A DNA stretch of 64,000 nucleotides from the sequence record AP019559. One strand, given 5' to 3'. The notes beneath the pieces were generated by a model that searched no databases, was not told where the DNA came from, and saw nothing but the letters and a program-made list of their open reading frames with translations. This document shows, piece after piece, positions 72-11,909 of this stretch. The DNA comes from Escherichia phage SP15. Positions within the stretch are counted from its first letter, which is position 1. Each line of letters opens with the position of its first letter. A program made the position numbers and the translations under genes.

Positions 72-147
72 TGGTCAGTGCGGCAGGACTCGAACCTGCG
101 ACCCGAAGCATCCAAGGCTCCCACGCTACCAACTGCGCTACGCACTG
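72..147 (-). tRNA. tRNA-Pro (anticodon UGG)
   Basis: 7-bp acceptor CAGUGCG/CGCACUG, D-stem GCGC/GCGU, anticodon stem GGAGC/GCUUC, loop CUUGGAU, T-arm GCAGG-UUCGAGU-CCUGC, encoded CCA. Confidence 0.7.
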
Positions 148-156
148 TTAATTCTT

Positions 157-354
157 TTATTGTGGGGGGATATTAATAATTCGTCCATCTACACAATAAA
201 CGGTACTAGGGATTGTACTGTATATGTAGAAATTCTTTATATTACTCTCTCCGCCACAGAAATTTTTAGCAAATTCATACTCTTTATTAATGGTTGAGTC
301 AAGTTTAAAACAACCAGTAAGTAGGAATACAGATAGCAATAAAACTTTCTTCAT
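157..354 (-). CDS. small putative lipoprotein (signal peptide with lipobox LLTGC)
   Basis: 65-aa ORF, N-terminal MKKVLLLSVFLLTGC, 3 further Cys in mature part; upstream TATAAT and AGAGAAGGAAA RBS on minus strand. Confidence 0.5.
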   Translation of the reverse strand: MKKVLLLSVFLLTGCFKLDSTINKEYEFAKNFCGGESNIKNFYIYSTIPSTVYCVDGRIINIPPQ

Positions 355-564
355 TTTGCTTTCCTTCTCTTCACTTTATAAAATATATTATACAGAGAAT
401 TAAGTAAAATAGCAAATGAATTTTTAATAAATTTACTTATTGTGTAGGCCACCTGGAGGCTATGAACCCCACGGCTGACAAAGAAGTTTGCGAGACTTCT
501 CTTAAAAGCCAGAATAGACCCGCCGATCTATCGGAACCTACATAATAAGTAAACTTTATAGTGT

Positions 565-685
565 CATTCTAGACAGGACTCGAACCTGTTATCACTTGTG
601 CGGACTTACGAGAACCATTCTTTCACTCGAATCGAACGAGCTTCTGCCCTAGCCAAGCTGGTTTCCCCATCAACCACGCTAGAAT
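565..685 (-). ncRNA. atypical tRNA-like RNA, about 121 nt, with two T-arm-like hairpins
   Basis: Perfect 7-bp terminal helix AUUCUAG/CUAGAAU, 3' T-arm ACAGG-UUCGAGU-CCUGU, internal hairpin GCUCG-UUCGAUU-CGAGU; too long for a canonical tRNA, no clean anticodon arm, no encoded CCA. Confidence 0.35.
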
Positions 686-807
686 GTTTGATTGTTTTCA
701 GTGCAAGAGTCCGAGTCTTGGACACGACCGCTTCGCAAGTACATAGGCAGCTTATCATGAGTCAGCACTTCCGAATTGCTAGCCCCGTGTTCTGCACTGA
801 AATTTTA

Positions 808-1155
808 TTAGTTTAACCGTAAAGTATTATCTACTTCACCATTAATTGTTCGGCATTCCTCTGGGATTGCTGGTGTAGCCTTGTATTCCCACCACTCAGC
901 ACCATCATATTCCCCACGTTCTAGCCAAGTTCCATCGGCAAACCATACATTACCATAAAGTAATTGTCCACCGTATCCAGAATCATATTCAAAGTCTAGG
1001 TTATTAAGAAACCCCTCAATGTCTTCTTCTGTATAACCTAAAGGTAATACCCAGACTTTTTTGTCCCCATAATACCCAAATTCTATTTTAATACACTTAA
1101 CTTTAGAATTGGTATTTTTTAAGGCGAGTAACAGCTCTTCTTTAGCATTACGCAT
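808..1155 (-). CDS. hypothetical protein
   Basis: 115-aa ORF between tRNA genes. Confidence 0.5.
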   Translation of the reverse strand: MRNAKEELLLALKNTNSKVKCIKIEFGYYGDKKVWVLPLGYTEEDIEGFLNNLDFEYDSGYGGQLLYGNVWFADGTWLERGEYDGAEWWEYKATPAIPEECRTINGEVDNTLRLN

Positions 1156-1180
1156 AGTATATTCTCATACTGAATTAAGT

Positions 1181-1257
1181 TGGCGCGACCGATGGGATTT
1201 GAACCCACATTCTCTCCCGTGACAGGGGAGTACCATTACCAAGCCAGCCCCGGTCGC
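1181..1257 (-). tRNA. tRNA-Asp (anticodon GUC)
   Basis: Acceptor GCGACCG/CGGUCGC, anticodon stem CUCCC/GGGAG, loop CUGUCAC, T-loop UUCAAAU, encoded CCA. Confidence 0.7.
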
Positions 1258-1266
1258 ATAATTCAT

Positions 1267-1452
1267 TTACTCAGCTTTGAGTTTTTCAATAGCTGCATTA
1301 AGTTCTTTAAGAAACTCTTTTCGTACATTAAGACGATTGAGACTTACTAGTATATCGTGTTTAAGTTCTTCGATGTATTTCTTTTCAACTTCAATATTGT
1401 TGATAGTGCTATCACGATGAACTTCTAGCTGCGCAATTACATTCTTGGACAT
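1267..1452 (-). CDS. hypothetical protein (coiled-coil-like)
   Basis: 61-aa ORF with GAGGAAAC RBS. Confidence 0.4.
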   Translation of the reverse strand: MSKNVIAQLEVHRDSTINNIEVEKKYIEELKHDILVSLNRLNVRKEFLKELNAAIEKLKAE

Positions 1453-1554
1453 GCTTGTTTCCTCAGTTATTAATGAAAATGGTATCTGTGGCTGAATTCG
1501 ATGTCAGCAATGATAGCTGGTTGGCTACCGGTTTACTTAACTCTACACAGAATT

Positions 1555-1637
1555 TGGCGGGCCGTGTAGGATTCGAACCTACGTTGTCTTTCGACATGGA
1601 TTAACAGTCCACCGCCAAACCGCTTGGCTAACGACCC
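1555..1637 (-). tRNA. tRNA-Asn (anticodon GUU) with unusually long 13-nt variable region
   Basis: Acceptor GGGUCGU/ACGGCCC (one G-U), D-stem GCCA/UGGC, anticodon stem GUGGA/UCCAU, loop CUGUUAA, variable GUCGAAAGACAAC, T-arm GUAGG-UUCGAAU-CCUAC, CCA. Confidence 0.6.
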
Positions 1638-1789
1638 TAAATTTATATTGCTGACTAGGATTTTCACCTAGACGGAGTTAGCACCGTAGCGTGTAGCGGC
1701 ATACCTCTCCAAACCGTGCCTCATCTTTCAATTACGGAGACAGTGTTCCTACGCGTGCCTGAATTGATTCAACAATTCTTCCAGCAAAT

Positions 1790-1865
1790 TGGACGACCGC
1801 ATGAGATTTGAACTCACATAAAAAGGATTTGCAATCCTTCGCCTAAGCCCTTCAGCCAACGGTCG
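1790..1865 (-). tRNA. tRNA-Cys (anticodon GCA)
   Basis: Acceptor CGACCGU/GCGGUCG, anticodon stem AAGGA/UCCUU, loop UUGCAAA, T-arm GUGAG-UUCAAAU-CUCAU, CCA. Confidence 0.65.
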
Positions 1866-1934
1866 GTTTATCTTGTTCTGTCATGTTGCTTCTCCAGTTC
1901 AATTTATGTAATTATTATACAGAACTTTTGGAAA

Positions 1935-2207
1935 CTAAGCAACTACATTTTTTAAGAATTTGATGCCTTTCTTTTTCTTCTTATATTTCCACGTTAATGG
2001 ATTCTGTCGATTATGAACGCTTGAGATCTTTGTCTCGTCAAAGTTCTTCAATATCATGTAATCACAGGATAATTGTTCTAGTAGAATGTGATCACCGTCA
2101 AAAGCGTATACATAAGGCTGTTGACTAACACGATAATGATAGACTTTGTTAATTCTACGTTTCAGCGACTTATCAGCGCAGTAAATAAAGAAGTTTTCAG
2201 GATGCAT
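1935..2207 (-). CDS. hypothetical protein
   Basis: ORF track 1935..2222 begins at TTG; internal ATG at 2207 follows AAGGAG with 6-nt spacing. Confidence 0.45.
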   Translation of the reverse strand: MHPENFFIYCADKSLKRRINKVYHYRVSQQPYVYAFDGDHILLEQLSCDYMILKNFDETKISSVHNRQNPLTWKYKKKKKGIKFLKNVVA

Positions 2208-2224
2208 CAGCAGCTCCTTCAATT

Positions 2225-2299
2225 TGGTGCACCCTGTTCGTATCGAACGAACCTCTCAAGCTCTTCAGGCAAGCGCTAATCCATCTCAGCTAAAGGTGC
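2225..2299 (-). tRNA. tRNA-like element, possible pseudo-tRNA (anticodon arm does not fold)
   Basis: Good 7-bp acceptor GCACCUU/AGGGUGC, T-arm GUUCG-UUCGAUA-CGAAC and CCA, D-stem GCUG/UAGC, but no 5-bp anticodon stem found. Confidence 0.35.
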
Positions 2300-2305
2300 A
2301 AATTT

Positions 2306-2382
2306 TGGCAAACCTACTAGGACTCGAACCTAGACCGTACGGTTTTGGAGACCGACATGCTGTCCAGTAACACTCTAGGAAT
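2306..2382 (-). tRNA. tRNA-Trp candidate (anticodon CCA), acceptor stem with two U-U mismatches
   Basis: Anticodon stem UCGGU/ACCGU, loop CUCCAAA, T-arm CUAGG-UUCGAGU-CCUAG, CCA; acceptor AUUCCUA/UAGGUUU imperfect. Confidence 0.5.
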
Positions 2383-2390
2383 GCAGAAAT

Positions 2391-2467
2391 TGGCGTCCTG
2401 TGCGGGGATCGAACCCGCAAATCCTACCTTGAAAGGGTAGTGACTTTACCAGTTTGTCTAACAGGAC
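2391..2467 (-). tRNA. tRNA-Glu (anticodon UUC)
   Basis: Acceptor GUCCUGU/ACAGGAC, anticodon stem CUACC/GGUAG, loop CUUUCAA, T-arm GCGGG-UUCGAUC-CCCGC, CCA. Confidence 0.7.
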
Positions 2468-2474
2468 TTAAATT

Positions 2475-2565
2475 TGGTGTTGGATGATGGAGTCGAACCA
2501 CCCGAGACCCTTCCGAGTCGGCAGATTTACAGTCTGCTTCGCTACCTCTACGATACTAATCCAAC
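2475..2565 (-). tRNA. tRNA-Tyr (anticodon GUA), type II with long variable arm
   Basis: Acceptor GUUGGAU/AUCCAAC, anticodon stem GCAGA/UCUGC, loop CUGUAAA, long variable arm, T-arm GGUGG-UUCGACU-CCAUC, CCA. Confidence 0.7.
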
Positions 2566-2695
2566 ATATTTAGAAGTATTCAAAAATTCTCATTTAAACA
2601 CTTTTAAATATGTTTTCAAATTAGGTAACTATTATACCAAGTTTTAAGGCACTGAGCAAGTCAAATTTTAAAGAACTTGCTCAGTGCTATATTAG

Positions 2696-2971
2696 TTAGT
2701 CGAACTTAGGAGTGACAGTTAAGGAGAACGGAAGTTCGAAAACTTCTTCACCCTCATTACTAACGGTAACTACACGACCTTTAAGTTCAGACATTAAAAT
2801 ATCAATATCAGCTTTTGCATCTGGAGCCATACCAGCTTCAACACATTTAGCTTTAACTTCCGGCAGAAGTTCGACATCGTAGAAATAAAGCCATTCAATC
2901 TCACCTTCCCAGCCTTCCCAGGATTTACAGATTGCACTTTCAATACCAGTTGCTACAACACGATTTTGCAT
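2696..2971 (-). CDS. hypothetical protein
   Basis: 91-aa ORF, GGAG RBS. Confidence 0.5.
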   Translation of the reverse strand: MQNRVVATGIESAICKSWEGWEGEIEWLYFYDVELLPEVKAKCVEAGMAPDAKADIDILMSELKGRVVTVSNEGEEVFELPFSLTVTPKFD

Positions 2972-3061
2972 TCGTTAACTCCTTCATCAATTTATACAAC
3001 TATTATATCAGAAATTTAAAGCAAAAGGCAAGTACATTTTTAAAAATTCTGTTTGGAGGAG

Positions 3062-3268
3062 CTAAACTCCAGATTCTTCAGCTAAGTCTAGGCTAATAAG
3101 AGTTATAGCCATAATTGCTGCACCGTGTTCTTTTTCTCCGGTGTTTTTAGCAGAGTCTATAATAGTCTTAATCTGTTCGTAATAGCCTTTTACTTCTTGT
3201 TCAATACCTGCCTCGGCTATCATGCCTTTAGTCATGATTCGTTGCATAGTAATTTCACGGTTAGCCAT
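3062..3268 (-). CDS. hypothetical protein
   Basis: 68-aa ORF, GGAGA RBS, start overlaps stop of upstream small ORF (TAATG-type coupling). Confidence 0.45.
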   Translation of the reverse strand: MANREITMQRIMTKGMIAEAGIEQEVKGYYEQIKTIIDSAKNTGEKEHGAAIMAITLISLDLAEESGV

Positions 3269-3428
3269 GATGTTTCTCCAGCTTCATTTTTAATAGTTTA
3301 CAAATGAAATCAACGTCTTCATCTGTACCTAGATCTCTATCTTCAAGAGTTGCCTTGAAGTTTTTAGTCAATTCCATGAGGATAACTTCTCTAGAACGAC
3401 GTGTTGGCGGAGGTGGATGTCTATACAT
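3261..3428 (-). CDS. small hypothetical protein (55 aa, Pro-rich N-terminus)
   Basis: Not in ORF track (below 60 aa); AAGGAA RBS 5 nt before ATG; translationally coupled to 3062..3268. Confidence 0.3.
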   Translation of the reverse strand: MYRHPPPPTRRSREVILMELTKNFKATLEDRDLGTDEDVDFICKLLKMKLEKHHG

Positions 3429-3443
3429 CTTATTTCCTTAGTT

Positions 3444-3520
3444 TGGTAGGGGTGGTGGGATTCGAACCCACAAAACCTGAATTTTAAGTCCAGTACCTAT
3501 GCCAATTCGATTACACCCCC
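3444..3520 (-). tRNA. tRNA with anticodon UAA (Leu-type anticodon but short variable loop)
   Basis: Acceptor GGGGGUG/CACCCCU, anticodon stem CUGGA/UUCAG, loop CUUAAAA, T-arm GUGGG-UUCGAAU-CCCAC, CCA; D-stem weak. Confidence 0.55.
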
Positions 3521-3527
3521 GTGTAGT

Positions 3528-3716
3528 TTAGTCAATTACTTTTGAGGCTTCAAGGTAGTCGATATAGTGTATGTTTTCTACCGTAATCATATAATCTGTC
3601 ACTTTATCCATAGCTTGGGCTTCAGAGGTAGCTCTGGCTAACCTATATCCTTTTTTATATTCATCCGGGTATTCTCTATCTTGGATAAACACAACATAAA
3701 CTATATATAGATCCAT
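3528..3716 (-). CDS. hypothetical protein
   Basis: 62-aa ORF. Confidence 0.4.
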   Translation of the reverse strand: MDLYIVYVVFIQDREYPDEYKKGYRLARATSEAQAMDKVTDYMITVENIHYIDYLEASKVID

Positions 3717-3725
3717 TTGTGACCT

Positions 3726-3803
3726 CTATTTAATTTGGTGGCTCCCCGAGGATTCGAACCTACGTACCTTCCGGTTATGAGCCGGGTGCTCATACCATAT
3801 GAG
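3726..3803 (-). tRNA. tRNA with anticodon CAU (Met/Ile type), weak T-stem
   Basis: Acceptor GGUUCUC/GGGAGCC, D-arm GCUC-AUAUGGUAU-GAGC, anticodon loop CUCAUAA, T-loop UUCGAAU but T-stem only 3 clean bp, CCA. Confidence 0.5.
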
Positions 3804-3809
3804 CTTGAG

Positions 3810-3898
3810 AACCAGAATTTGGCGGAAGAAGCGGGAATCGAACCCACAAGGCTATATTTCAAACCGACAGATTAGCAATCTGCTGCAATACCGTTATG
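3810..3898 (-). tRNA. tRNA-Ser (anticodon GCU), type II
   Basis: Acceptor GGAAGAA/UUCUUCC, anticodon stem GCAGA/UCUGU, loop UUGCUAA, long variable arm, T-loop UUCGAUU, CCA. Confidence 0.7.
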
Positions 3899-3929
3899 CT
3901 ATTCTTCCGAATTTATAAGATATATTATA

Positions 3930-4448
3930 TTAGAAATTTAGCTTCATAGCAAGAAAATTTTTCAAGTTTTCGGTAGACATCTCATCCACATCTACGGGAG
4001 AAACAAAGCCGTTTAATTTTCTAGCAAATTTTTCACCCGCAGGATCATTATCTCCGACAGCTACCAATTTAAAAGGTAGTAATTTCAGTTGCTTTAATAA
4101 CGCTTTTCCTGGAGAAGAACCCAACATTGCTAGGGCTGGATAACCAGCATTATGTAACGCAACTGCCTTAAATACAGATTCAGCAATCAATACTACTTTT
4201 TCATCTCCATTGAGAGTTTCTAGTCCCCATACACACTGGGTAGTAGAATAAGTAAAGTATTTAGCTTCAAAGGGGCACTTACCATGACCTTTTGGAGCAG
4301 AAGGATTATAAGTTTGATAGCCCCTCAACATCCCAGAGAAGTCATACAACGGGACTGTTAGCCATCCTTCCGGACTTAACCAGCAATGATATTTATCTGT
4401 ATCAAATCCTCTAGATAAGAGGTGCTGTGTTAGCTCATCAACATTCAT
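3930..4448 (-). CDS. stand-alone Toprim-domain protein (DnaG-like catalytic core)
   Basis: Motifs VVLIAESVFKAVALHNAGYPALAMLG and VAVGDNDPAGEKFARKL resemble the DnaG Toprim E...DxD core; start moved to ATG at 4448 (AGAGGA RBS), track extension reads through the promoter. Confidence 0.5.
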   Translation of the reverse strand: MNVDELTQHLLSRGFDTDKYHCWLSPEGWLTVPLYDFSGMLRGYQTYNPSAPKGHGKCPFEAKYFTYSTTQCVWGLETLNGDEKVVLIAESVFKAVALHNAGYPALAMLGSSPGKALLKQLKLLPFKLVAVGDNDPAGEKFARKLNGFVSPVDVDEMSTENLKNFLAMKLNF

Positions 4449-4623
4449 ATTTGGTTCCTCTTTCAAATTTATAGATATATTATACAGAGAATTTAGCATT
4501 CAAGCAATCAAATTTTTTAACTTTTTAGAGGAAAATCATAGGGCACTTAAGGATAGCAGATAAGTGGTGAGGACCAAAATTTGTGACCCCACTAAAAATT
4601 CAGGGGCAATTTTTAAAGACCCC

Positions 4624-4653
4624 TTGACATTTTCGCTGGGGTAGTGTAAAGTA
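4624..4653 (+). promoter_or_regulatory. sigma70-type promoter for the low-complexity cassette
   Basis: TTGACA (4624-4629), 17-nt spacer, TAAAGT; about 60 nt upstream of ATG 4714. Confidence 0.5.
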
Positions 4654-4713
4654 TATGTTATGGATGAGTGATCAAAGAGACACACATTTTCTATATACTA
4701 GGAGGTGTCAAAA

Positions 4714-5697
4714 ATGACAGAAGAAGTAGCTAAGAGTCCTGAGACCGTCGCTAGCGTTGCAGCAGAACTGCACCGTCACGAGGAATCAGATAAGAAAAAG
4801 TGGGAGAAGGTCAGAGCCTACGAAGAAAAACATCGTGAACACGATGATGAAGAAGATGACGATGAACATTGTCATAAATATGGAAAACATAAAATGCAAG
4901 AACCAGTAAACGTATTTACTAGTGGCTTCCCTGGCCTACTGGGTGGTTACCCAGCAAACGCAGGTGCTTTCGGTGGTGAAGGTATGGGACTATTCGGAGC
5001 TATCCTAATCGGTGCTCTATTAACAGGCGGATTCGGTGGTTTCGGTGGATTCGGTGGACGTGGTGTAGTTGGTGATGGTACCGCAGTTGATGCAGTACTT
5101 CAGAACCAAGATACCGCTAGTATTCTAGCAGCTATTAACACTACTCGTACAGAAGCTAACCAGGGTACTGGAGCTGTTTTAAGCGCAGTTAACAATGGGT
5201 TTAGCCAGACATCCCAAAACCAGAGCCGTGATACTCAGTCTGTACTAACTACGATCTATGGTACAGGTGCTAATCTGTCTAATCAGATCTGTCAGGAAAC
5301 TCGCAACGTTATTCAGGGTCAGTTCGATCTTTCTCGCCAGATTGATCAATCTTTCGCAGCTAATCAGATAGCTCGTGCACAAGATAAGTTTGATTCTGCA
5401 CAGATCGCTTTCCAGCAGACTTTACAAACTAATAACCAGTTTGCCGCTGTTCAGGCTCAGATGTGTGCTAACCAGAACTCTCTGGAACGTCAGATCGCTG
5501 AATGTTGCTGTGAACTTCAGACTGCTATCGCTGGTGTAACTACTGCTCGTATTCAGGATGAGTTAGATGCATGTCGCCTACGTGAAGCAATCGCTGCGGG
5601 TAACGGTGCTAACGGTCAGGTAATTAATCAAATCGCTGTAAGTCTTGGTGCTATCACTCAGACTCTGGCTGGTCTGCAGGCTAAACTGCCGGCTTAA
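4714..5697 (+). CDS. low-complexity membrane protein: His/acidic N-terminus, Gly-zipper TM segment, Q/N/S/T-rich C-terminal domain with CCC motif
   Basis: AGGAGG RBS 9 nt before ATG 4714; TM GLFGAILIGALLTGGFGGFGGFGG; codon usage rich in CGT/GGT/GCT/CTG. Confidence 0.6.
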   Translation: MTEEVAKSPETVASVAAELHRHEESDKKKWEKVRAYEEKHREHDDEEDDDEHCHKYGKHKMQEPVNVFTSGFPGLLGGYPANAGAFGGEGMGLFGAILIGALLTGGFGGFGGFGGRGVVGDGTAVDAVLQNQDTASILAAINTTRTEANQGTGAVLSAVNNGFSQTSQNQSRDTQSVLTTIYGTGANLSNQICQETRNVIQGQFDLSRQIDQSFAANQIARAQDKFDSAQIAFQQTLQTNNQFAAVQAQMCANQNSLERQIAECCCELQTAIAGVTTARIQDELDACRLREAIAAGNGANGQVINQIAVSLGAITQTLAGLQAKLPA

Positions 5698-5718
5698 TAT
5701 TAAGGGGAGGAGCCCATT

Positions 5719-6135
5719 ATGAGTAAATATGGTTTTGTAAATAACGGACTTAATCAAAGTATGGGCTCCCAGCAGCCCATTCCGGGTCTGGATAACCCCT
5801 ACTTACAACAATTGCAACAGCGTTTAGCAGAAGCGCAACAGATGCAACAACAACTCCAGCAAAACCCTGGAAGTGTGAGTCCTATGCAAATGATGCAGCA
5901 AATGAGCGGGCAGTCGCAAATGCCTCAACAAATGCAGCAACAGATGCCGCAGCAGCAAGTTCAGCAGCAAACCCAACAACCGCAGGTTTCTGCGGAAGGA
6001 CAGGCAGTACTAGCCCTTTTCGAAGACTTCACAAAGACAGAGGATGGGAAGCAGCTTGTATCACTTATGGGTAAGTTTAATAGCTTCTGCCAAAGCCAAG
6101 TTGCAAAAGCTCAAAATGGTGGTAATAACTCCTAA
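5719..6135 (+). CDS. Q-rich protein
   Basis: 138-aa ORF, RBS AGGGGAGGAG, about 30 percent Gln in central region. Confidence 0.55.
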   Translation: MSKYGFVNNGLNQSMGSQQPIPGLDNPYLQQLQQRLAEAQQMQQQLQQNPGSVSPMQMMQQMSGQSQMPQQMQQQMPQQQVQQQTQQPQVSAEGQAVLALFEDFTKTEDGKQLVSLMGKFNSFCQSQVAKAQNGGNNS

Positions 6136-6144
6136 GGAGAAATT

Positions 6145-6339
6145 ATGTGTTGCAGAAAACCTGTTTCGTGCTGCCCAATGCCTGTAGCACGTTGTTGCTC
6201 TCCAGCAATGTTTACACAAATACCGGCGTTCAATCCCTTTGCCTTTAAGCCTACTCTTATCCTGCCCCCTAGAGTAGATTTTCAGTCAAGATTGGCCTCC
6301 CGTATGGGTGGTTGCTGTACACCGAGAGTGTGGTTCTGA
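6145..6339 (+). CDS. Cys-rich small protein (paired CC motifs)
   Basis: 64-aa ORF, RBS TAAGGAGA, four CC pairs; followed by hairpin terminator. Confidence 0.5.
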   Translation: MCCRKPVSCCPMPVARCCSPAMFTQIPAFNPFAFKPTLILPPRVDFQSRLASRMGGCCTPRVWF

Positions 6340-6354
6340 AGAACCAAACAATAA

Positions 6355-6386
6355 AGCCCCTAGTCGAAAGACTTAGGGGCTTTTCT
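6355..6386 (+). terminator. rho-independent terminator after the low-complexity cassette
   Basis: Hairpin AGCCCCTAG...CTAGGGGCT followed by TTTTCTG. Confidence 0.65.
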
Positions 6387-6399
6387 GTATTTAAGATAA

Positions 6400-6436
6400 A
6401 AGAAAAGCCCTGCGCTCTCCAGGGAACGCAGGGCTT
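6400..6436 (-). terminator. rho-independent terminator after SPFH gene
   Basis: Hairpin GCCCTGCG...CGCAGGGC with U-run on minus strand. Confidence 0.6.
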
Positions 6437-6459
6437 ACTTCAGATGTTACATGCGGATA

Positions 6460-7407
6460 TTATTTATTACGCATATCCATGATCATTTGACCATCGTAGC
6501 CAGTACCTACCACAGTCTGTGGTACACCACCTTGATATTTCTGAGCACGAATCATTTCGACTTCCAGTTGTTTCCAACGAATCATCTCAGGAGTAATGGT
6601 ACGTTGCAGTGCGGCGTTAGCTTCAGCTTCTTTCTTAGCTGCGTACAGTTTAGCATCTGCGTCACGTTCATTAGCGATAGCTTGGTTGTTGCGAGCTTCA
6701 CGATCTGCTTCTGCTTGTTTAACTTTTTGCTGTGCTTCCTGTTCAACACGAGCTAATTCAGCTTTAGCAGCATTAACCTGTTCTTCACGAACTTTGGTAT
6801 TCTGTACCTGTTCCATGATTACCGGTGGCAAAGTAATATCCTGAAGGAATACCTGCTTAACTGTGTAACCATATGGGCGTGCATACTCTTCAACTTCCTG
6901 TTGAATTGCAGTTTGCAATTGAGCCTGAATTTTAGCATCAAACAAATCTTGTGCTTTAGGTACAGACTTACCAAACTCACGAATAGTAGACAGTAATTTT
7001 TCAGTTACATATTTGTCTAACGCTTGATCCTGAGTACCTGCGTTAATACGGTTAATTGGTGCCTTAGAACCATCAAACTGCAACATAACAGTCAGGTCAA
7101 CAGTGGATTTAAACTTATCCTGGCTAGGAACCTGAAGTTTATCTAATTTTACAGCAATATCTTTTGTACTAAAAGTGTCGAAAGATGCAAATGGGTTTAC
7201 AAGATGGAAACCTGGTAATACTGGGTTAGGATCTACTTTACCCAGAAATGTTTGGGTTTTAACCGTACCATCAGAAACAATAGTATATGAATTAAAGGCT
7301 AGAATCAAGCCTGCTAAACCAACTACAGCACCAATACCCCAACGTTTAATAGTACGAATTACTTTCTGCTCAGAAGTCAGTTCTTTCATATTTTTAGTAT
7401 TAAACAT
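6460..7407 (-). CDS. SPFH/band-7 (prohibitin/HflC-like) membrane protein
   Basis: N-terminal TM helix IGAVVGLAGLILAF, then band-7-like domain and Ala/Glu/Gln-rich coiled-coil typical of the SPFH family. Confidence 0.6.
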   Translation of the reverse strand: MFNTKNMKELTSEQKVIRTIKRWGIGAVVGLAGLILAFNSYTIVSDGTVKTQTFLGKVDPNPVLPGFHLVNPFASFDTFSTKDIAVKLDKLQVPSQDKFKSTVDLTVMLQFDGSKAPINRINAGTQDQALDKYVTEKLLSTIREFGKSVPKAQDLFDAKIQAQLQTAIQQEVEEYARPYGYTVKQVFLQDITLPPVIMEQVQNTKVREEQVNAAKAELARVEQEAQQKVKQAEADREARNNQAIANERDADAKLYAAKKEAEANAALQRTITPEMIRWKQLEVEMIRAQKYQGGVPQTVVGTGYDGQMIMDMRNK

Positions 7408-7440
7408 ATATTTCCTTTGTTTTAGTTACAGTTAATAAAA

Positions 7441-7515
7441 TTGGCCGAGGTGACAGGATTCGAACCTGCATAAAGGAATTTAGAAGACTCCTGCCTCTCC
7501 CTTAGACTACACCCC
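7441..7515 (-). tRNA. tRNA-Arg (anticodon UCU)
   Basis: Acceptor CGGGGUG/CACCUCG, anticodon stem GGAGU/AUUCC, loop CUUCUAA, T-arm GCAGG-UUCGAAU-CCUGU, CCA. Confidence 0.7.
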
Positions 7516-8029
7516 GTTTAAATATTTTTAAGAACTCTCGTAAAAACTCTTAAAAATACAGACGATACCGGGAGAGTCATAAGTCTCACTCATTAAGTAT
7601 TTCAAGACAAAATACAGTAACGTCTATTATTTTCCAGTTTAAGTCAGGGTGACTTAGTGGTTAGGTCCTGCGGTATATTGAGGACTCGGTTAGGCTTGGG
7701 GTCATGACTTCCCGCCTTTTGCTGCTACTCAACAGGAGTTATCGCGAATTACCTGTGCTATTGTGCACCATTAGTGACATCTCTCATGTCAGCATTTCCC
7801 ACTTTGTGGATAGCTTGAAAAACTACTCCGATATGGAGAAAAAACTTCACTATCCTAGAATACCTTCTAAAGTTCTTCTTTAGCCTGGACATAGTTAAAT
7901 CGTAATAAAACTATTCAGCAGACTGGTTGGTTAGCCTGGAACCAACTACCGCGTGGTTTAGGCAGTGCGCAACTAACCTCGGAAGCTTTTACGTTAAAAG
8001 CATCAGTTATCCAGTTCTTACCGACCGTA

Positions 8030-8365: not shown

Positions 8366-8809
8366 TTAATTAAATTCACCAGCAATCTGAGCAGCAGTAC
8401 CACCATCATAACGCCCAGGAAATTCTTCCTTAATCGCTTTCATCAGCATACCTTTTGTAATTCCAGGGTTTAGCTTAACTAATTCTGCAAAGTATTTACG
8501 AATCTCAGTATCAGATAACTGAGGGGGCAGATACTCCTGCAACCACTTATTTAGAATGTACTCATACTGAGCGGACTGCAAGCTATAACTATCAAGATCT
8601 TGACCATGAAGTTTAGCTTTCATCTGGTTAATGCTTTTTAGTTGAGCTTTGAGATAAGACACAAATTGTTCAGAAGTGATGAAATCTTTATTAATACGCT
8701 GAAGATCCCCGATTATGGTCTGATAGCTTTTAGCGACTTCTTTATCAGAACCATTAAACTTAGAATCCTGCAAAGCTCTACGCAAAACATCTAAAATATT
8801 CTCTTCCAT
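8366..8809 (-). CDS. GatB/YqeY-domain protein
   Basis: C-terminal ITKGMLMKAIKEEFPGRYDGGTAAQIAGEF matches the YqeY family signature. Confidence 0.6.
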   Translation of the reverse strand: MEENILDVLRRALQDSKFNGSDKEVAKSYQTIIGDLQRINKDFITSEQFVSYLKAQLKSINQMKAKLHGQDLDSYSLQSAQYEYILNKWLQEYLPPQLSDTEIRKYFAELVKLNPGITKGMLMKAIKEEFPGRYDGGTAAQIAGEFN

Positions 8810-8979: not shown

Positions 8980-9047
8980 ATTTCGCTTCCTCTCATTAAT
9001 TTATGGAAGTATTATACGGAAATTTAAGTATTTAAGCAAGTAAATTT

Positions 9048-9497
9048 TTAAGTTTTAGTGACAACAGGTTTATAAAACGTATGTCCCTTAATCTTAGTTG
9101 TTTTCTTAAACTTCTTTGTCCAGTAAGGTTTATCTTTACCACTATGGAAGTATAGTGCTCCATGTGTAGGATCTTGTGGTAAATCAACGTAGTATATCAC
9201 TCTAGCTAAATTCTTAGCGGTTTGCCAAGCCTCATCAGTTTTATCAACTTTTGGTCTCTTAGATACCCAAGAGAACTGGTTAGACTGATATACTACTTTA
9301 CAGTAGGAATCTGGGAATTTACCGGAGTTTACACGGTTTTTAGTAACGTGTGCAATCGCCGTCATTCCCTTTATGCCCTCACCACGACTTTCGAAATAGA
9401 TATTTTTAGCAATGCAATCTATTTCTTTTGCATCGTGCGATGCCTGACTACTAAAGCTGAAGGTAAGGGCAGCTACTAAAAGCAAAGCTGCCTTCAT
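9048..9497 (-). CDS. SleB-like cell-wall hydrolase (Hydrolase_2 family) with signal peptide
   Basis: Signal peptide MKAALLLVAALTFSFSSQA; motifs AIAHVTKNRV, FPDSYCKVVYQSNQFS, DPTHGALYFH; start at ATG 9497 after GCAGGAG RBS. Confidence 0.6.
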   Translation of the reverse strand: MKAALLLVAALTFSFSSQASHDAKEIDCIAKNIYFESRGEGIKGMTAIAHVTKNRVNSGKFPDSYCKVVYQSNQFSWVSKRPKVDKTDEAWQTAKNLARVIYYVDLPQDPTHGALYFHSGKDKPYWTKKFKKTTKIKGHTFYKPVVTKT

Positions 9498-9502
9498 TCT
9501 TT

Positions 9503-9820
9503 TTACTCCTGCCAATCATATTCAACACGATTGGGGTTTTCTTTGTACCCTAAGTCAAGCAAATCATTACGCATATGTTGCTTAGCTACTGGGTTCGAGG
9601 TTACTAGTACCACTTTCTTTGGTCTCTGCCCAAATTCTAAGAGTAAACGAAGAATTTGATAACCTTCCATACCATCTACAGCCAAGTCATTATCCATATA
9701 AACGAAGTGGCCTGTGGTATCAGTTTTATTCAGAAACTCGACAGCGGCTTCTGGGGTTCGAATGATAATGTCCATTCCGTGAAGATTACGCACATCATCA
9801 ATCAAAATATGAAAAGTCAT
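9503..9820 (-). CDS. receiver (REC)-like domain protein
   Basis: 105 aa; pattern IIRTPEAAVEFL...VYMDNDLAVDGMEGYQILRLL...KVVLVTS resembles a CheY-like fold. Confidence 0.4.
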   Translation of the reverse strand: MTFHILIDDVRNLHGMDIIIRTPEAAVEFLNKTDTTGHFVYMDNDLAVDGMEGYQILRLLLEFGQRPKKVVLVTSNPVAKQHMRNDLLDLGYKENPNRVEYDWQE

Positions 9821-10262
9821 AATAGCCTCGTTTCATCAATTTAAAAATATATTATACAGATAACTTAGTAAATTAGCAAATACATTTTTAAATTGTGAAA
9901 CTAGTAAACCGATAAACAGCCTAGAGGCGCCACAGGCCATATCTTATGAGCCATGTACCTTTGATCTAGGGTTTGAATCATCAACGAATACTTTGCATCT
10001 TTTAGCTTTAGAAGTTTAGAAGTTTGAGTTCTTTAAACTTTTCAGCTTTCATACTTAAATGTTGATCTTTGAAGTTGTGTCGGTAATATCAACGACGCTT
10101 TGTTCTTACGTGTCAGCTTAAAAGGCTGGTGTAATAAACATAATCTCCAATAGATTATACTTTATAGTATGGTCAGCGGTCTTATTTAACCTCGTATTTC
10201 AACCGCTGCTGCGAGGTAAGATGCTTGGGCTTTCGTCTACCGATTTACTAGCTTTTAAATTA

Positions 10263-10901
10263 TTACTCTACTTCAATGAAGGTAGAGGCGTTAGACTCGG
10301 ACAGAACAAAGTCAACATTTGTTGCAAAGTCCTGGTATTCCTCGTCATGCTGCTTAATCAGCTTTTCCAGTTCCAGCGGATCAATCAAGAATGGAGTATT
10401 CTTGAGTTCCAGCAGGTTGAGCTGCATTTTAACTTCATCTTCGGAAGTTTTCTTATCGCGGGTAGCCATGCTATCCTGCAAACGCTCATATTTAGCATCA
10501 AACTGTGCTTTCTGCGTATTAAACTTAACCGTAGCGGCATGGAACTGCTTACGCATGTTAGCCAGCAGTTGAGCTTTAAGTTCCATAGAACGCTTAGCTT
10601 CAATTGCTTCCGCAACAGTCATCTTACGAGAACCGATCTCAACGATTGTTTCTGCATTGCTCTTAATCAGAGCAGATTTAATACGATCACGCCGAGACAT
10701 CATATCCAGCAGAGATTGGAAATCAGTCTTAATACGAGTAGACAGATCAGCTACTTCGATTGCAGCGCCAACTACAACCTGGTTTTTATCCTTACCTTCA
10801 CCAACAGCAATCAGAAGATGTTGTTCAGTAGCTTTACGGATTTTAGCTTCCAGAGATTTGATAGTTGCCAGAGCGCGAGTTTTAGAAATACGAGTAGTCA
10901 T
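10263..10901 (-). CDS. hypothetical protein (coiled-coil rich)
   Basis: 212-aa ORF, AGGAAG RBS. Confidence 0.55.
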   Translation of the reverse strand: MTTRISKTRALATIKSLEAKIRKATEQHLLIAVGEGKDKNQVVVGAAIEVADLSTRIKTDFQSLLDMMSRRDRIKSALIKSNAETIVEIGSRKMTVAEAIEAKRSMELKAQLLANMRKQFHAATVKFNTQKAQFDAKYERLQDSMATRDKKTSEDEVKMQLNLLELKNTPFLIDPLELEKLIKQHDEEYQDFATNVDFVLSESNASTFIEVE

Positions 10902-10954
10902 TATTTGCTTCCTTATATGAAGTTTGAGATTTGAATTTGTTTAAAGTTGGCCTA

Positions 10955-11207: not shown

Positions 11208-11909
11208 TCAAATTTTCATTTTTTCGATCATAGCTGCAACACAATAGCTTTCAACTAAGGCATCAAATGCAGGATCATGCTTAACAGGATAGATCCCATA
11301 ACGAATAGTGTCCATCTTCTCCATTTTAGCTATTGCCCAGCTAATACCTTCGGTCTCTAGAGCCTTATAACTGTATCCAGCTTGCATCCAGAGATTACGG
11401 AGAGATCTAACATTACCCAAGTTCCAGAATTTCCACGGAACTATTTCTTCATTGGTTCCAGCATGGAAAGTGTTTGCAGAGTAGATAGTCATATCAAACT
11501 CTGGGCCATTGCCATAATACAAAGCATTTTCGCCTAGAGCCAACTCCATAATATTTTGAGCCATAGAGAAGGCAGCATGGTTAGAGCCAAGTTTATTAGT
11601 GCAATGATGTTTACCATTTTGGAAGGCAATCAGTTTTGGATTACGCTCATTCATAGCTTCCATAATGTGGATAGCAGACGGGCTATGTTTAGCCTGATCC
11701 ATCCAGAATGCTAGAGTAGGTGCTGTAACTTTGGCACCAGAATTAAGTTGATCTTGTACATCTAAAGTAACAAATACTAGATCAGGGTCTTTATCAATTC
11801 CATGCATAGCCACAAAAGCGAATGAAGGCATTACGATATGAGTAGTACCACAATCTCCTGGAGTTCCTAGAGATTCAATATCTAGCATACCAAATGGTTT
11901 TACTTTCAT
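11208..11909 (-). CDS. DEDD-type 3'-5' exonuclease (T4 DexA-like)
   Basis: N-terminal MLDIESLGT (Exo I D-x-E) and C-terminal H-x4-D (KHDPAFDA). Confidence 0.6.
   Translation of the reverse strand: MKVKPFGMLDIESLGTPGDCGTTHIVMPSFAFVAMHGIDKDPDLVFVTLDVQDQLNSGAKVTAPTLAFWMDQAKHSPSAIHIMEAMNERNPKLIAFQNGKHHCTNKLGSNHAAFSMAQNIMELALGENALYYGNGPEFDMTIYSANTFHAGTNEEIVPWKFWNLGNVRSLRNLWMQAGYSYKALETEGISWAIAKMEKMDTIRYGIYPVKHDPAFDALVESYCVAAMIEKMKI

Follow-up and report, generated by a model that had tools for sequence, protein, structure and literature searches.

Organization of the locus

The 64,000-nt stretch of DNA analyzed here (the window) is from a T5-like phage (Tequintavirus) and is closest to phage phiLLS, with 99.7% identity. 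The gene pair named in the preliminary description proved to be real, with both ORFs on the minus strand (Table 1). The two genes are the already known T5.084/T5.083 (T5p082/T5p081) pair, which has been in the T5 annotation since 2005, T5.083 (T5p081) carrying the label 'cell wall hydrolase homolog'. The SleB-like hydrolase was 97.3% identical to that of T5 st0, and the cREC protein was about 96% identical to the one from a T5 contig. Gene order, spacing and flanking promoters were identical to those of T5 (AY692264), and there was no difference of substance. Being near-identical to annotated T5 genes, the two genes of the window are nothing new in themselves.

The stop codon of the cREC gene (TAA, 9503-9505) and the ATG of the SleB-like gene (9495-9497) were separated by a gap of 5 nt. 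An alternative upstream start, TTG at 9515, is used in neither the RefSeq nor the GenBank records. The SleB-type precursor is 149 aa long, and processing as predicted would leave a mature protein of 130 aa and pI 9.7. Directly downstream of the pair lies a tRNA cluster, with tRNA-Arg at 7442-7516 and a total of eleven or twelve tRNAs within 72-7516.

Table 1. Features of the cREC/SleB-type locus, listed in the direction of transcription
Feature	Position in window	Strand	Remarks
Sigma-70-type early promoter of the cREC/SleB-like bicistron	9851..9879	-	TTGCTA, 17 nt, TATAAT; 10 of 12 consensus matches
cREC gene	9503..9820	-	105 aa, pI 5.1, no Cys, no signal peptide; orthologue of T5.084/T5p082
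Ribosome-binding site of the SleB-like gene	9506..9509	-	GGAG, read from the sequence; within the final cREC codons
SleB-type (Hydrolase_2) gene	9048..9497	-	ATG start; orthologue of T5.083/T5p081
Signal-peptide part, residues 1-19	9441..9497	-	MKAALLLVAALTFSFSSQA; predicted cleavage before Ser20
Cys28 codon	9414..9416	-	Conserved in 35 of the 35 homologues covering the position; Leu in Bacillus SleB
Glu36 codon	9390..9392	-	Stands opposite the first Glu of YGESRGE in SleB; invariant in 36 homologues
Cys66 codon	9300..9302	-	Invariant; Ser in Bacillus SleB
Next promoter	9011..9039	-	TTGCTT, 17 nt, TATAAT; AY692264 promoter P-D/E 33 at the homologous place

The hexamers and the 17-nt spacing of the bicistron promoter were kept as a footprint in all of the 25 Markadamsvirinae loci while the spacer sequence varied, and the T5 record AY692264 has a putative promoter annotated at the equivalent position. 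The next promoter delimits the bicistron on its 3' side and heads a unit of DUF7616 and YqeY-like genes. The SleB-like gene had been described as early. The sigma-70-type promoter is of the early type and agrees with this, but early position does not discriminate the gene from the lysis genes, since the canonical T5 holin and endolysin likewise lie in the early region (PMC3326045).

The SleB-type hydrolase

The assignment of the downstream product to the Hydrolase_2 (SleB-like) family was in accordance with Pfam, PHROG, and both sequence and fold matches in the PDB. Hydrolase_2 (PF07486) matched with 89.5 bits (cutoff 27; 2.4e-25) over profile positions 1-100 of 100, and phrog_938, labeled 'endolysin', matched at 4.7e-30. 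The PDB sequence matches were the SleB catalytic domains 4f55 and 4fet (2.6e-8), in which YGESRGE stands opposite YFESRGE of the phage protein. With the AF2 model (pLDDT 90.6), 4f55 and 4fet were the sole significant Foldseek matches (TM 0.71-0.75 on the target, 28% identity). The protein is a Hydrolase_2 member with, as modeled, the SleB catalytic fold.

The first Glu of YGESRGE, we assume, is the catalytic Glu of SleB (E151 in B. anthracis and E157 in B. cereus; 4FET, 4F55). The conservation of Glu36, Cys28 and Cys66 spanned 36 homologues with identities down to 30%. Cys28 and Cys66 are the only two cysteines of the protein and would form a disulfide in the periplasm. The SleB equivalog TIGR02869 (NCBIfam) scored 50.3 bits, below its cutoff of 236.5, and aligned at profile positions 79-201 only; a Pfam search found no PG_binding_1 domain in the protein. 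By the equivalog test, the phage enzyme does not appear to be the spore cortex-lytic SleB proper. SleB domains have been placed among the lytic transglycosylases (PMC6403190). The 'second endolysin far from holin' has already been mentioned in print, and our literature search found T5-family SleB-like proteins only in genome annotations and reviews, with no enzymatic, localization or expression reports.

A signal peptide had also been claimed for this protein. As indications of a Sec signal we took a positive n-region, a hydrophobic core 7-15 residues long, small amino acids at -3 and -1, and no lipobox. All of these were found in MKAALLLVAALTFSFSSQA ahead of Ser20, which divides into MK, AALLLVAALTFSF and SSQA before the Ser; the core has 13 residues, and the top 11-residue Kyte-Doolittle window of the segment reached 2.61. 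A hydrophobic stretch at the N-terminus with a small-x-small site behind it was present in 33 of the 36 aligned homologues and in 64 of 65 distinct further IMG/VR genes; of the three homologues without it, two are truncated at the N-terminus. We infer from these features that the SleB-like protein is exported by Sec to the periplasm. Two other readings of the N-terminus were set aside, namely a lipoprotein, as there is no lipobox Cys, and a SAR anchor, as the segment is short and seems to run into a consensus cleavage site.

The cREC protein

The upstream product had been described as CheY-like. In profile and fold searches, the receiver-like fold stood, and membership in PF00072 was not seen. 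The protein had no PF00072 match at E<=1 in Pfam, and the similarity was to cREC_REC (PF20274), above the cutoff (54.8 bits versus 27; 1.5e-14; profile positions 2-86 of 88). It is therefore a full-length member of the cREC family and belongs to phrog_1479. In 58 relatives, D8, D9, R21, D43, D45 and G53 were invariant and N76 and P77 near-invariant, so that the equivalents of the acidic residues of the receiver active site are invariant. The AF2 model (pLDDT 95.8) found response-regulator receiver domains as its best PDB fold matches, which were weak (E 3.5e-3, TMq about 0.56). A PDB sequence search gave only noise, such as designed beta-trefoils, with CheY at E 0.9. No bacterial relatives were found in a profile scan of genome contigs with a 10-sequence alignment, and the longer homologues (130-210 aa) contained no second Pfam domain. 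A 273-aa protein of MSP1 was uninformative, because an HNH_3 homing endonuclease is fused ahead of cREC.

The cREC protein is, as judged from its model, a divergent receiver-fold protein that keeps the acidic active-site residues. Like CheY (PF00072), it displays the alpha/beta receiver topology, with strands 1, 3 and 4 followed by Asp-Asp, Asp and Thr/Ser, respectively. Unlike CheY, it has a loop in place of helix 1, lacks helix 5 and the conserved Lys, and has no partner kinase. No kinase was annotated among the cREC neighbors, and the describers of the family stated that it never occurs in two-component systems. The protein is thus not a two-component response-regulator receiver.

The name cREC stands for cyclic-phosphate-processing Receiver, and its describers predicted a phosphoesterase acting on cyclic-phosphate nucleotides or RNA ends (Iyer et al., 2021) and linked the family to NAD/ADP-ribose and RNA-ligase contexts (PMC7824862). 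Unlike these contexts, the T5-like locus places neither an RNA ligase nor an NAD-processing enzyme beside cREC. NAD/ADP-ribose-processing enzymes, RNA ligases and WYL were found neither near the cREC gene of the window nor among the 114 neighbors of 19 other viral cREC genes, and no neighbor family was recurrent in these 19 loci. In T5-like phages, the neighbors were an exoribonuclease-fold protein, a YqeY-like protein and tRNA genes, and in relatives also DUF4326 and Sequestin. A literature search on cREC returned annotations and reviews but no experimental paper.

Gene order of the pair

The order cREC then Hydrolase_2 was found in 25 of 25 IMG/VR Markadamsvirinae loci as well as in T5, phiLLS and MSP1, and T5-like relatives with as little as about 57% identity shared it. 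Some relatives carried an HNH endonuclease or Sequestin gene inserted between the two, and both genes were retained. In a Klebsiella T5-like phage the hydrolase was present without cREC, in My1 the two genes were 2.7 kb apart, and KVP40-like phages contained cREC only. Among 73 other SleB-like phage loci, none had cREC within 3 kb. Conversely, Hydrolase_2 lay beside cREC in 1 of the 19 other cREC loci, which is from an unrelated PolB phage and has the reverse order. This recurrence and the full conservation in Markadamsvirinae count against the independence of the two genes and may not be wholly a matter of chance.

The preliminary description had pointed to the neighborhood of the two genes. 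A functional meaning of this neighborhood was not borne out, because the products would belong to different compartments, cREC being cytoplasmic as it lacks a signal peptide, and because the adjacency was gone outside Markadamsvirinae. The adjacency is a lineage-specific gene order and not a two-part system.

Position relative to the lysis genes

The gene had been described as separate from the lysis cassette, and the annotation of phiLLS agreed. There, the SleB-like gene is at 42.2 kb, the holin (gp095) and endolysin (gp096) genes are at 62.6-63.6 kb and the Rz-like spanins (gp091/092) at 60.3-61.1 kb, a separation of about 20 kb. By synteny with phiLLS, the canonical cassette would lie past the left end of the window. 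The holin-adjacent endolysin of T5-like phages is a Peptidase_M15 enzyme (PMC11180984). In a tblastn search with a T5 endolysin query, neither the window nor 26 kb of phiLLS gave a match; the query sequence was unvalidated, and the result was given no weight.

The secreted SleB-type subfamily is widespread, with at least 583 relatives in IMG/VR. In the 73 other SleB-like phage loci, the neighbors included a gp33-type late-transcription coactivator (8 loci), ThyX (3), a PD-(D/E)XK nuclease (3), gp59, RNR and Metallophos, and no holin, spanin or endolysin family was among the 25 commonest neighbor families. Genes of this subfamily sit amid replication and early genes, outside lysis cassettes, and by its position the SleB-like gene is not a member of a canonical holin-endolysin-spanin cassette.

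Published screens and virion proteins

In the CRISPRi-ART tables for T5, both T5.083 and T5.084 are 'Not Fit' (PMC11879866, supplementary file 16); knockdown of neither gene affected fitness in the laboratory host of this screen. The supplementary note of that study gives T5.084 as Fit, at odds with its own table (PMC11879866). These negatives are weak because the true endolysin gene lys (T5.040) is also scored 'Not Fit' (PMC11879866). HIDEN-SEQ covered T4, Bas37 and Bas54, and no T5-like phage (bioRxiv 2025.11.20.689424). The virion proteins listed for AKFV33 do not include the SleB-like protein; as only four bands were analyzed, this says little about its absence from the virion (PMC3326045).

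Possible roles of the hydrolase

On balance, we lean towards regarding the pair as two unrelated accessory early genes under one promoter, with the hydrolase providing an auxiliary and dispensable cleavage of murein in the periplasm rather than acting as the lysis endolysin. What was computed are the families and folds of the proteins, their conserved residues, the signal sequence, the footprint of the promoter and the distribution of the adjacency; from these we infer export, the disulfide, the specificity for a bond, the timing and the physiological role. The SleB-like protein would be made from the early sigma-70 promoter and exported by Sec, with the signal peptide cut after Ser-Gln-Ala. 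Oxidation in the periplasm would close the Cys28-Cys66 bridge, giving a 15-kDa basic single-domain enzyme with the predicted SleB catalytic fold. By analogy with the lytic transglycosylase SleB, it would use Glu36 to cleave the MurNAc-GlcNAc backbone of the host sacculus. The wall may thereby be pre-weakened or remodeled, or the breakdown of glycan may be finished after the peptidase endolysin has acted. The cREC protein would stay in the cytoplasm and exert no regulation on the hydrolase.

Accessory, holin-independent cleavage of periplasmic murein is the likely role of the hydrolase, and envelope remodeling instead of terminal lysis is plausible. A lysis endolysin is not what we expect here because murein would be reached without the holin and because the gene lies about 20 kb from the cassette of holin, M15 endolysin and spanins. 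An exported muramidase that is early and constitutively active should be harmful, and some restraint on its activity or substrate must therefore exist. SleB proper requires muramic-delta-lactam, which is absent from E. coli murein, and the bond and substrate specificity of SleB is therefore not simply transferable to the phage enzyme.

It is possible, if on the unlikely side, that the protein is a second, latent endolysin that is exported early by Sec, stays inactive in the energized periplasm until the holin collapses the membrane potential, and then aids the M15 peptidase in terminal lysis. The Sec-exported Lys44 of oenophage fOg44 and the SAR endolysins are precedents for latency after export. 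The N-terminal export signal, which makes holin-mediated release unnecessary, and the 'endolysin' label in PHROGs and many records are consistent with such a role, and cleavage of glycan would complement a peptidase of the peptide stems. However, the 13-residue core with its good signal-peptidase site does not resemble the Gly/Ala-rich SAR anchors, none of the 73 diverse loci sampled places the gene beside a holin or spanin, and knockdown was without fitness effect, though the same holds for lys. Quite improbable, in our view, is an envelope-directed competition or exclusion, in which murein or the septum is altered against superinfecting phages or cell division without lysis. The early promoter, the periplasmic targeting and the dispensability in single-phage laboratory infection would all fit it, as would the location in an accessory block that takes up anti-defense genes in relatives; but T5 has a known exclusion factor in the lipoprotein Llp (listed as T5.158 by CRISPRi-ART), and the very broad occurrence of the family across phage types points to a general housekeeping role.

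A functional two-gene module, in which cREC for example processes a cytoplasmic murein-breakdown product or signal, or controls the production of the hydrolase, is very improbable. The shared promoter, the 5-nt gap between stop and start, the gene order kept throughout Markadamsvirinae and in relatives to about 57% identity, and the independent reverse-order adjacency in the PolB phage argue for it. They are opposed by the separation of a cytoplasmic cREC from a Sec-exported hydrolase and by the distribution outside the lineage, where cREC was seen in 0 of 73 SleB-like loci and Hydrolase_2 was missing from 18 of 19 cREC loci. Also against it are the Klebsiella phage without cREC, the distance in My1, the insertion of mobile genes between the pair with neither lost, the lack of a recurrent family among cREC neighbors, and the tie of cREC to NAD/ADP-ribose and RNA-ligase contexts made by its describers (PMC7824862). 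A role in DNA entry, raised in the preliminary description, has hardly any probability left. A peptidoglycan-cleaving enzyme encoded outside the lysis cassette might serve as an entry or virion-associated factor helping DNA to cross murein. Yet the gene is on second-step-transfer DNA behind an early promoter, the cleavable Sec signal would direct the protein away from the assembly site and is ill-suited to a virion protein, and the protein is absent from the four analyzed bands of AKFV33. Moreover, the muralytic entry activity of T5 is assigned to the tail protein pb2, as cited in a later paper (Boulanger, 2008; reference 20 in PMC3326045).

Wider meaning

A murein enzyme of SleB type, predicted to be exported by Sec, is encoded away from the lysis cassette in a model phage and in several hundred or more lineages of environmental phages. 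An explanation of its role would close a gap in the well-worked view of lysis by holin, endolysin and spanin. We also considered two linked speculations, which are rather unlikely, namely that cREC is an anti-defense enzyme and that the SleB-type enzymes form a holin-independent periplasmic murein class of large virulent phages. Such a class might be marked by signal peptide and disulfide, be widespread, and be expressed alongside replication genes. The cREC protein (T5.084) might destroy immune signals of the cyclic ADP-ribose or 2',3'-cyclic-phosphate type, or repair cleaved tRNA ends.

The accessory block around cREC is centered on RNA and nucleotides, with the exoribonuclease-fold protein, the YqeY-like protein and the tRNA genes, joined in relatives by DUF4326. 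Two Sequestin genes, which encode a 3'cADPR sponge, have entered the locus of one T5-like relative and flank its cREC on both sides. The enzymatic nature of cREC is a prediction. Where the gene lies in T5-like phages, and the sponge genes next to it in that relative, lead to a concrete hypothesis that is cheap to address in a tractable phage.

Comparison with known systems

The hydrolase resembles the 'second endolysin' or cell-wall hydrolase that is encoded by further large virulent phages, namely Phapecoctavirus and rV5-like phages and PAK_P3 (gp151); these are Hydrolase_2 proteins present beyond a canonical lysozyme (PMC10793346, PMC12031403). The identity with these putative enzymes was 33-41% over the catalytic core, and gp151 was proposed to account for a build-up of wall precursors in infected cells (PMC4933390). 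With Bacillus SleB/CwlJ, the spore-cortex lytic transglycosylase (4F55/4FET), the phage enzyme shares the fold of the catalytic domain and the Glu of the ESRGE motif. Unlike SleB, it has no N-terminal PG_binding_1 domain and displays Cys28 and Cys66 in place of Leu and Ser; it is phage-encoded and would be exported to the periplasm of a Gram-negative host, which has no muramic-delta-lactam cortex.

The Sec- and SAR-exported endolysins, such as Lys44 of fOg44, Lyz of P1 and R21 of phage 21, are the sole lysis endolysins of their phages and are encoded beside a holin or pinholin. Like these, the SleB-type protein is predicted to be muralytic and to gain access to the wall by way of the Sec system of the host and not through holin holes. 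Unlike these, it is a second enzyme, encoded about 20 kb from the cassette, and its N-terminus looks cleavable and not like a releasable anchor.

Layout of the cREC and hydrolase genes

Over the 2-kb region around the two genes, the closest record was Escherichia phage phiLLS (Tequintavirus; 99.7% identity), and 444 phage records matched, nearly all from T5-like phages infecting Escherichia or Salmonella. The G+C content of the window is about 39%. A minus-strand tRNA gene cluster occupies its first 7.5 kb, where ARAGORN detected 11 genes and Rfam the same 11 plus one (40.3 bits), for which there was no ARAGORN call. The preliminary description had reported a secreted SleB-like hydrolase beside a CheY-like protein, and this is confirmed: both ORFs are real genes at the positions listed in the table.

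Features of the window and of related loci
Sequence	Position	Strand	Feature
Window	3739-3813	-	Additional Rfam tRNA
Window	6460-7407	-	SPFH/Band 7 protein, 315 aa
Window	8366-8809		YqeY-like gene
Window	directly after hydrolase stop		Second promoter (P-D/E 33 in T5)
Window	9048-9497	-	SleB-like hydrolase (Hydrolase_2)
Window	9503-9820	-	cREC protein
Window	9851-9879	-	Promoter TTGCTA-17-TATAAT, upstream of cREC
Window	10221-10934	+	T5p083 ORF
Window	10263-10901	-	212-aa ORF
Window	11208-11909	-	Rv2179c-like protein, 233 aa
L006 (phage MSP1)	1985-2806		HNH_3 domain fused in frame upstream of cREC
L032	4324-4788		154-aa ORF between cREC and hydrolase
L040	3763-3993		PF21825 gene
L040	4331-4546		PF21825 gene
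L091	2468-3213		Hydrolase_2 and frameshifted cREC

Across 25 Markadamsvirinae loci, the hexamers and spacing of the promoter upstream of cREC were constant and the spacer was substituted, a pattern that marks a working promoter. Between the cREC stop and the ATG of the hydrolase the distance is 5 nt, and a GGAG lies within the 3' end of cREC. The second promoter drives DUF7616 and the YqeY-like gene, a pair running up to tRNA-Arg. By this layout cREC and the hydrolase gene make up one bicistron, which belongs to the early promoter class. The unit showed no terminator-like site.

The SPFH/Band 7 gene (Pfam 2e-17; phrog_200 'lipoprotein') adjoins tRNA-Arg and keeps its position in distant T5-like contigs (L041). 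The 212-aa ORF (phrog_1491) is labeled 'tail fiber protein' in many records; this label looks wrong, because the ORF lies in an early block centred on RNA and nucleotides and has no supporting Pfam match. In its place, the T5 st0 record AY692264 annotates the overlapping T5p083. The 233-aa protein matches the Rv2179c-like 3'-5' exoribonuclease domain (4e-7; phrog_255 'exonuclease'); its names in the records vary between peptidase M14, metallopeptidase and recombination exonuclease. With this gene, the YqeY-like gene and the tRNA cluster side by side, the surroundings have a flavour of RNA maintenance.

Identity of the two proteins

Public records place the start of the hydrolase at ATG 9497 and not at TTG 9515, so that the protein has 149 aa. 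It matched the whole Pfam Hydrolase_2 model (89.5 bits, cutoff 27) and phrog_938 'endolysin', but failed the SleB equivalog model (50 bits, cutoff 236.5), as the peptidoglycan-binding domain is missing. A PDB sequence search matched nothing but the two SleB catalytic domains of known structure (2.6e-8), and these same structures were the only significant fold neighbours (TM 0.71-0.75) of its AlphaFold2 model (36 homologues, pLDDT 90.6). In its YFESRGE motif, Glu36 is invariant in the family and stands opposite the first Glu of SleB YGESRGE, which is reported to be the catalytic Glu of SleB (4FET and 4F55). The N-terminus (MKAALLLVAALTFSFSSQA, then predicted cleavage before SHD) is built like a cleavable Sec signal and contains no lipobox. 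The full-model match and this N-terminus agree with the signal-peptide-bearing enzyme described earlier.

A pattern scan of IMG/VR yielded at least 583 relatives. A hydrophobic N-terminal segment precedes the catalytic core in 33 of the 36 aligned homologues and in 64 of 65 further distinct genes. Cys28 and Cys66, the sole cysteines of the hydrolase, are kept in every homologue covering both positions, whereas the corresponding residues of Bacillus SleB are Leu and Ser; a periplasmic disulfide would be the simplest reading.

The 105-aa protein matched Pfam cREC_REC (54.8 bits, cutoff 27), and the ordinary Response_reg model gave no match in the Pfam search. Its model (pLDDT 95.8) is nearest, weakly, to response-regulator receiver domains (best E 3.5e-3, TM about 0.56), from which it is predicted to differ by a loop in place of helix 1 and the absence of helix 5. 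D8, D9, R21, D43, D45 and G53 are invariant in 58 relatives. Because of this profile, the weak fold similarity and the invariant residues, the 'CheY-like pattern' was rightly perceived and reflects a receiver fold that has diverged. The cREC domain was defined by Iyer et al. as receiver-derived and never found in two-component systems, and was predicted to be a phosphoesterase for cADPR or 2',3'-cyclic phosphates (PMC7824862). The name cREC is already used in some sequence records.

Conservation of the adjacency

The adjacency was examined from both sides, searching cREC loci for Hydrolase_2 and SleB-like loci for cREC. In Markadamsvirinae the order cREC then Hydrolase_2 was universal (all 25 IMG/VR loci examined, and also T5, phiLLS and MSP1), and it was retained in metagenomic T5-like relatives whose cREC shares just 57-69% identity. 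These relatives carry a stable block of DUF7022, Rv2179c-like exoribonuclease, 212-aa protein, cREC, Hydrolase_2, DUF7616, YqeY-like and sometimes DUF4326. Elsewhere the pair separates. In a Klebsiella T5-like phage that lacks cREC, the exonuclease gene is followed at once by the hydrolase, Pectobacterium phage My1 has cREC followed by DUF7022 with the hydrolase 2.7 kb further on, and KVP40-like vibriophages have cREC without a hydrolase partner. A Hydrolase_2 neighbour was detected in one of 19 distinct non-T5 cREC loci, and no cREC within 3 kb of the SleB-like gene in 73 non-T5 loci (65 distinct genes). The junction also tolerates insertions, namely a Sequestin gene in L040 (a 92.4-kb T5-like contig, Logan SRR11036332) and an ORF read from its sequence as HNH/AP2-like in L032. 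Homing endonuclease genes have inserted at the locus in L006, where an HNH_3 domain is fused to cREC, and apparently in L032. The products would occupy different compartments, since the hydrolase has an export signal and cREC has none. From the lost adjacency, the insertions and the compartments we conclude that the pairing is an inherited gene order and not a module or system.

The exception is L091 (IMG/VR UViG 3300038652_000127), a phage with a family-B DNA polymerase, in which Hydrolase_2 is followed after 6 nt by a frameshifted cREC. This second, independent adjacency has the reverse order, and its Hydrolase_2 has the Cys pair and no signal peptide. This unexplained case, one in 19, is as a rough estimate about what chance could give.

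Role of the hydrolase

In phiLLS, holin and endolysin (gp095/096) and Rz-like spanins (gp091/092) lie within 60.3-63.6 kb and the SleB-like gene at 42.2 kb; by synteny, the lysis cassette of the present phage would lie outside the window, past its left end. The hydrolase was therefore rightly described as separate from the lysis cassette. The holin-adjacent endolysin of T5-like phages is a Peptidase_M15 enzyme (PMC11180984). Neighbours of SleB-like genes in the 73 loci mostly served replication, nucleotide metabolism or transcription (gp33-type coactivator, ThyX, PD-(D/E)XK nuclease, gp59, RNR, Metallophos), and holin and spanin families were absent from the 25 commonest neighbour families; location outside the cassette therefore characterises the subfamily in general and is not peculiar to T5. 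The term 'early' agrees with the promoter class but does not discriminate, because canonical lysis genes share the early region (PMC3326045).

The best supported mechanism would be a holin-independent auxiliary activity, in which the gene would be transcribed early, the product exported by Sec, its signal peptide removed, a disulfide formed and the glycan backbone cut in a Glu36-dependent manner, as would be expected from SleB, an enzyme classed among the lytic transglycosylases (PMC6403190). This mechanism faces one main problem: a muramidase made early and exported without restraint should be harmful, so either latent activity or a restricted substrate is needed. The enzyme could be a second endolysin held back until the membrane is de-energised. 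Alternatively, because SleB requires a stem-peptide-free muramic lactam, the enzyme might conceivably favour glycan that is denuded or has been trimmed by a peptidase, but this is pure speculation. The proposed role in DNA entry is unlikely, since the gene reaches the cell only at second-step transfer, its product would go to the periplasm and the muralytic activity of T5 entry is ascribed to pb2 in work cited as reference 20 of PMC3326045. Overall, the earlier interpretation is partly supported.

One source of functional data was found in the literature, namely the CRISPRi-ART knockdown screen of T5 in E. coli DH10b (PMC11879866). Its supplementary file 16 scores T5.083 (fitness -3.97, p 0.73) and T5.084 (-4.20, p 0.88) as 'Not Fit', a negative to be read with caution because the true endolysin lys is likewise 'Not Fit'. 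The paper is inconsistent across its supplementary files 1 and 16: T5.084 and T5.090 count as 'Fit' unknowns in the supplementary note, and the data tables give 'Not Fit' for both. T5.076 in the tRNA region is flagged there as a known anti-defence gene.

Possible function of cREC

The cREC gene lies between the exoribonuclease-fold gene and the YqeY-like gene, close to the tRNA cluster. DUF4326, an additional neighbour in relatives (further downstream in L040 and the related locus L042), was tied to NAD/ADP-ribose systems by the describers of cREC (PMC7824862). In L040, PF21825 genes flank cREC, one on each side. PF21825 is Sequestin, experimentally shown to be a 3'cADPR sponge blocking Thoeris (bioRxiv 10.1101/2025.07.12.664507). 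This single locus fits the predicted cREC chemistry as a hypothesis and not a finding; the 19 other viral cREC genes had no recurrent neighbour family.

Comparison with known systems

Both genes are known from earlier records and papers, at the level of annotation. The 2005 T5 st0 record contains them as T5p082, with a noted similarity to KVP40.0304, and T5p081, labeled 'cell wall hydrolase homolog' (PF07486, COG3773); they are T5.084 and T5.083 in the reference numbering. The SleB-type gene was named alongside lysozyme and holin in a T5-like phage paper (PMC3326045), and a second 'endolysin' distant from the holin has been remarked on, together with the question of which of the two is put to use (PMC11180984). 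The main points of interest are the unexplained breadth with which exported SleB-type enzymes occur among virulent phages and a possible, testable part of cREC in anti-defence or RNA repair. Wall precursors accumulate during infection by the related Pseudomonas phage PAK_P3, and its homologous 'cell wall hydrolase' was put forward as an explanation (PMC4933390).
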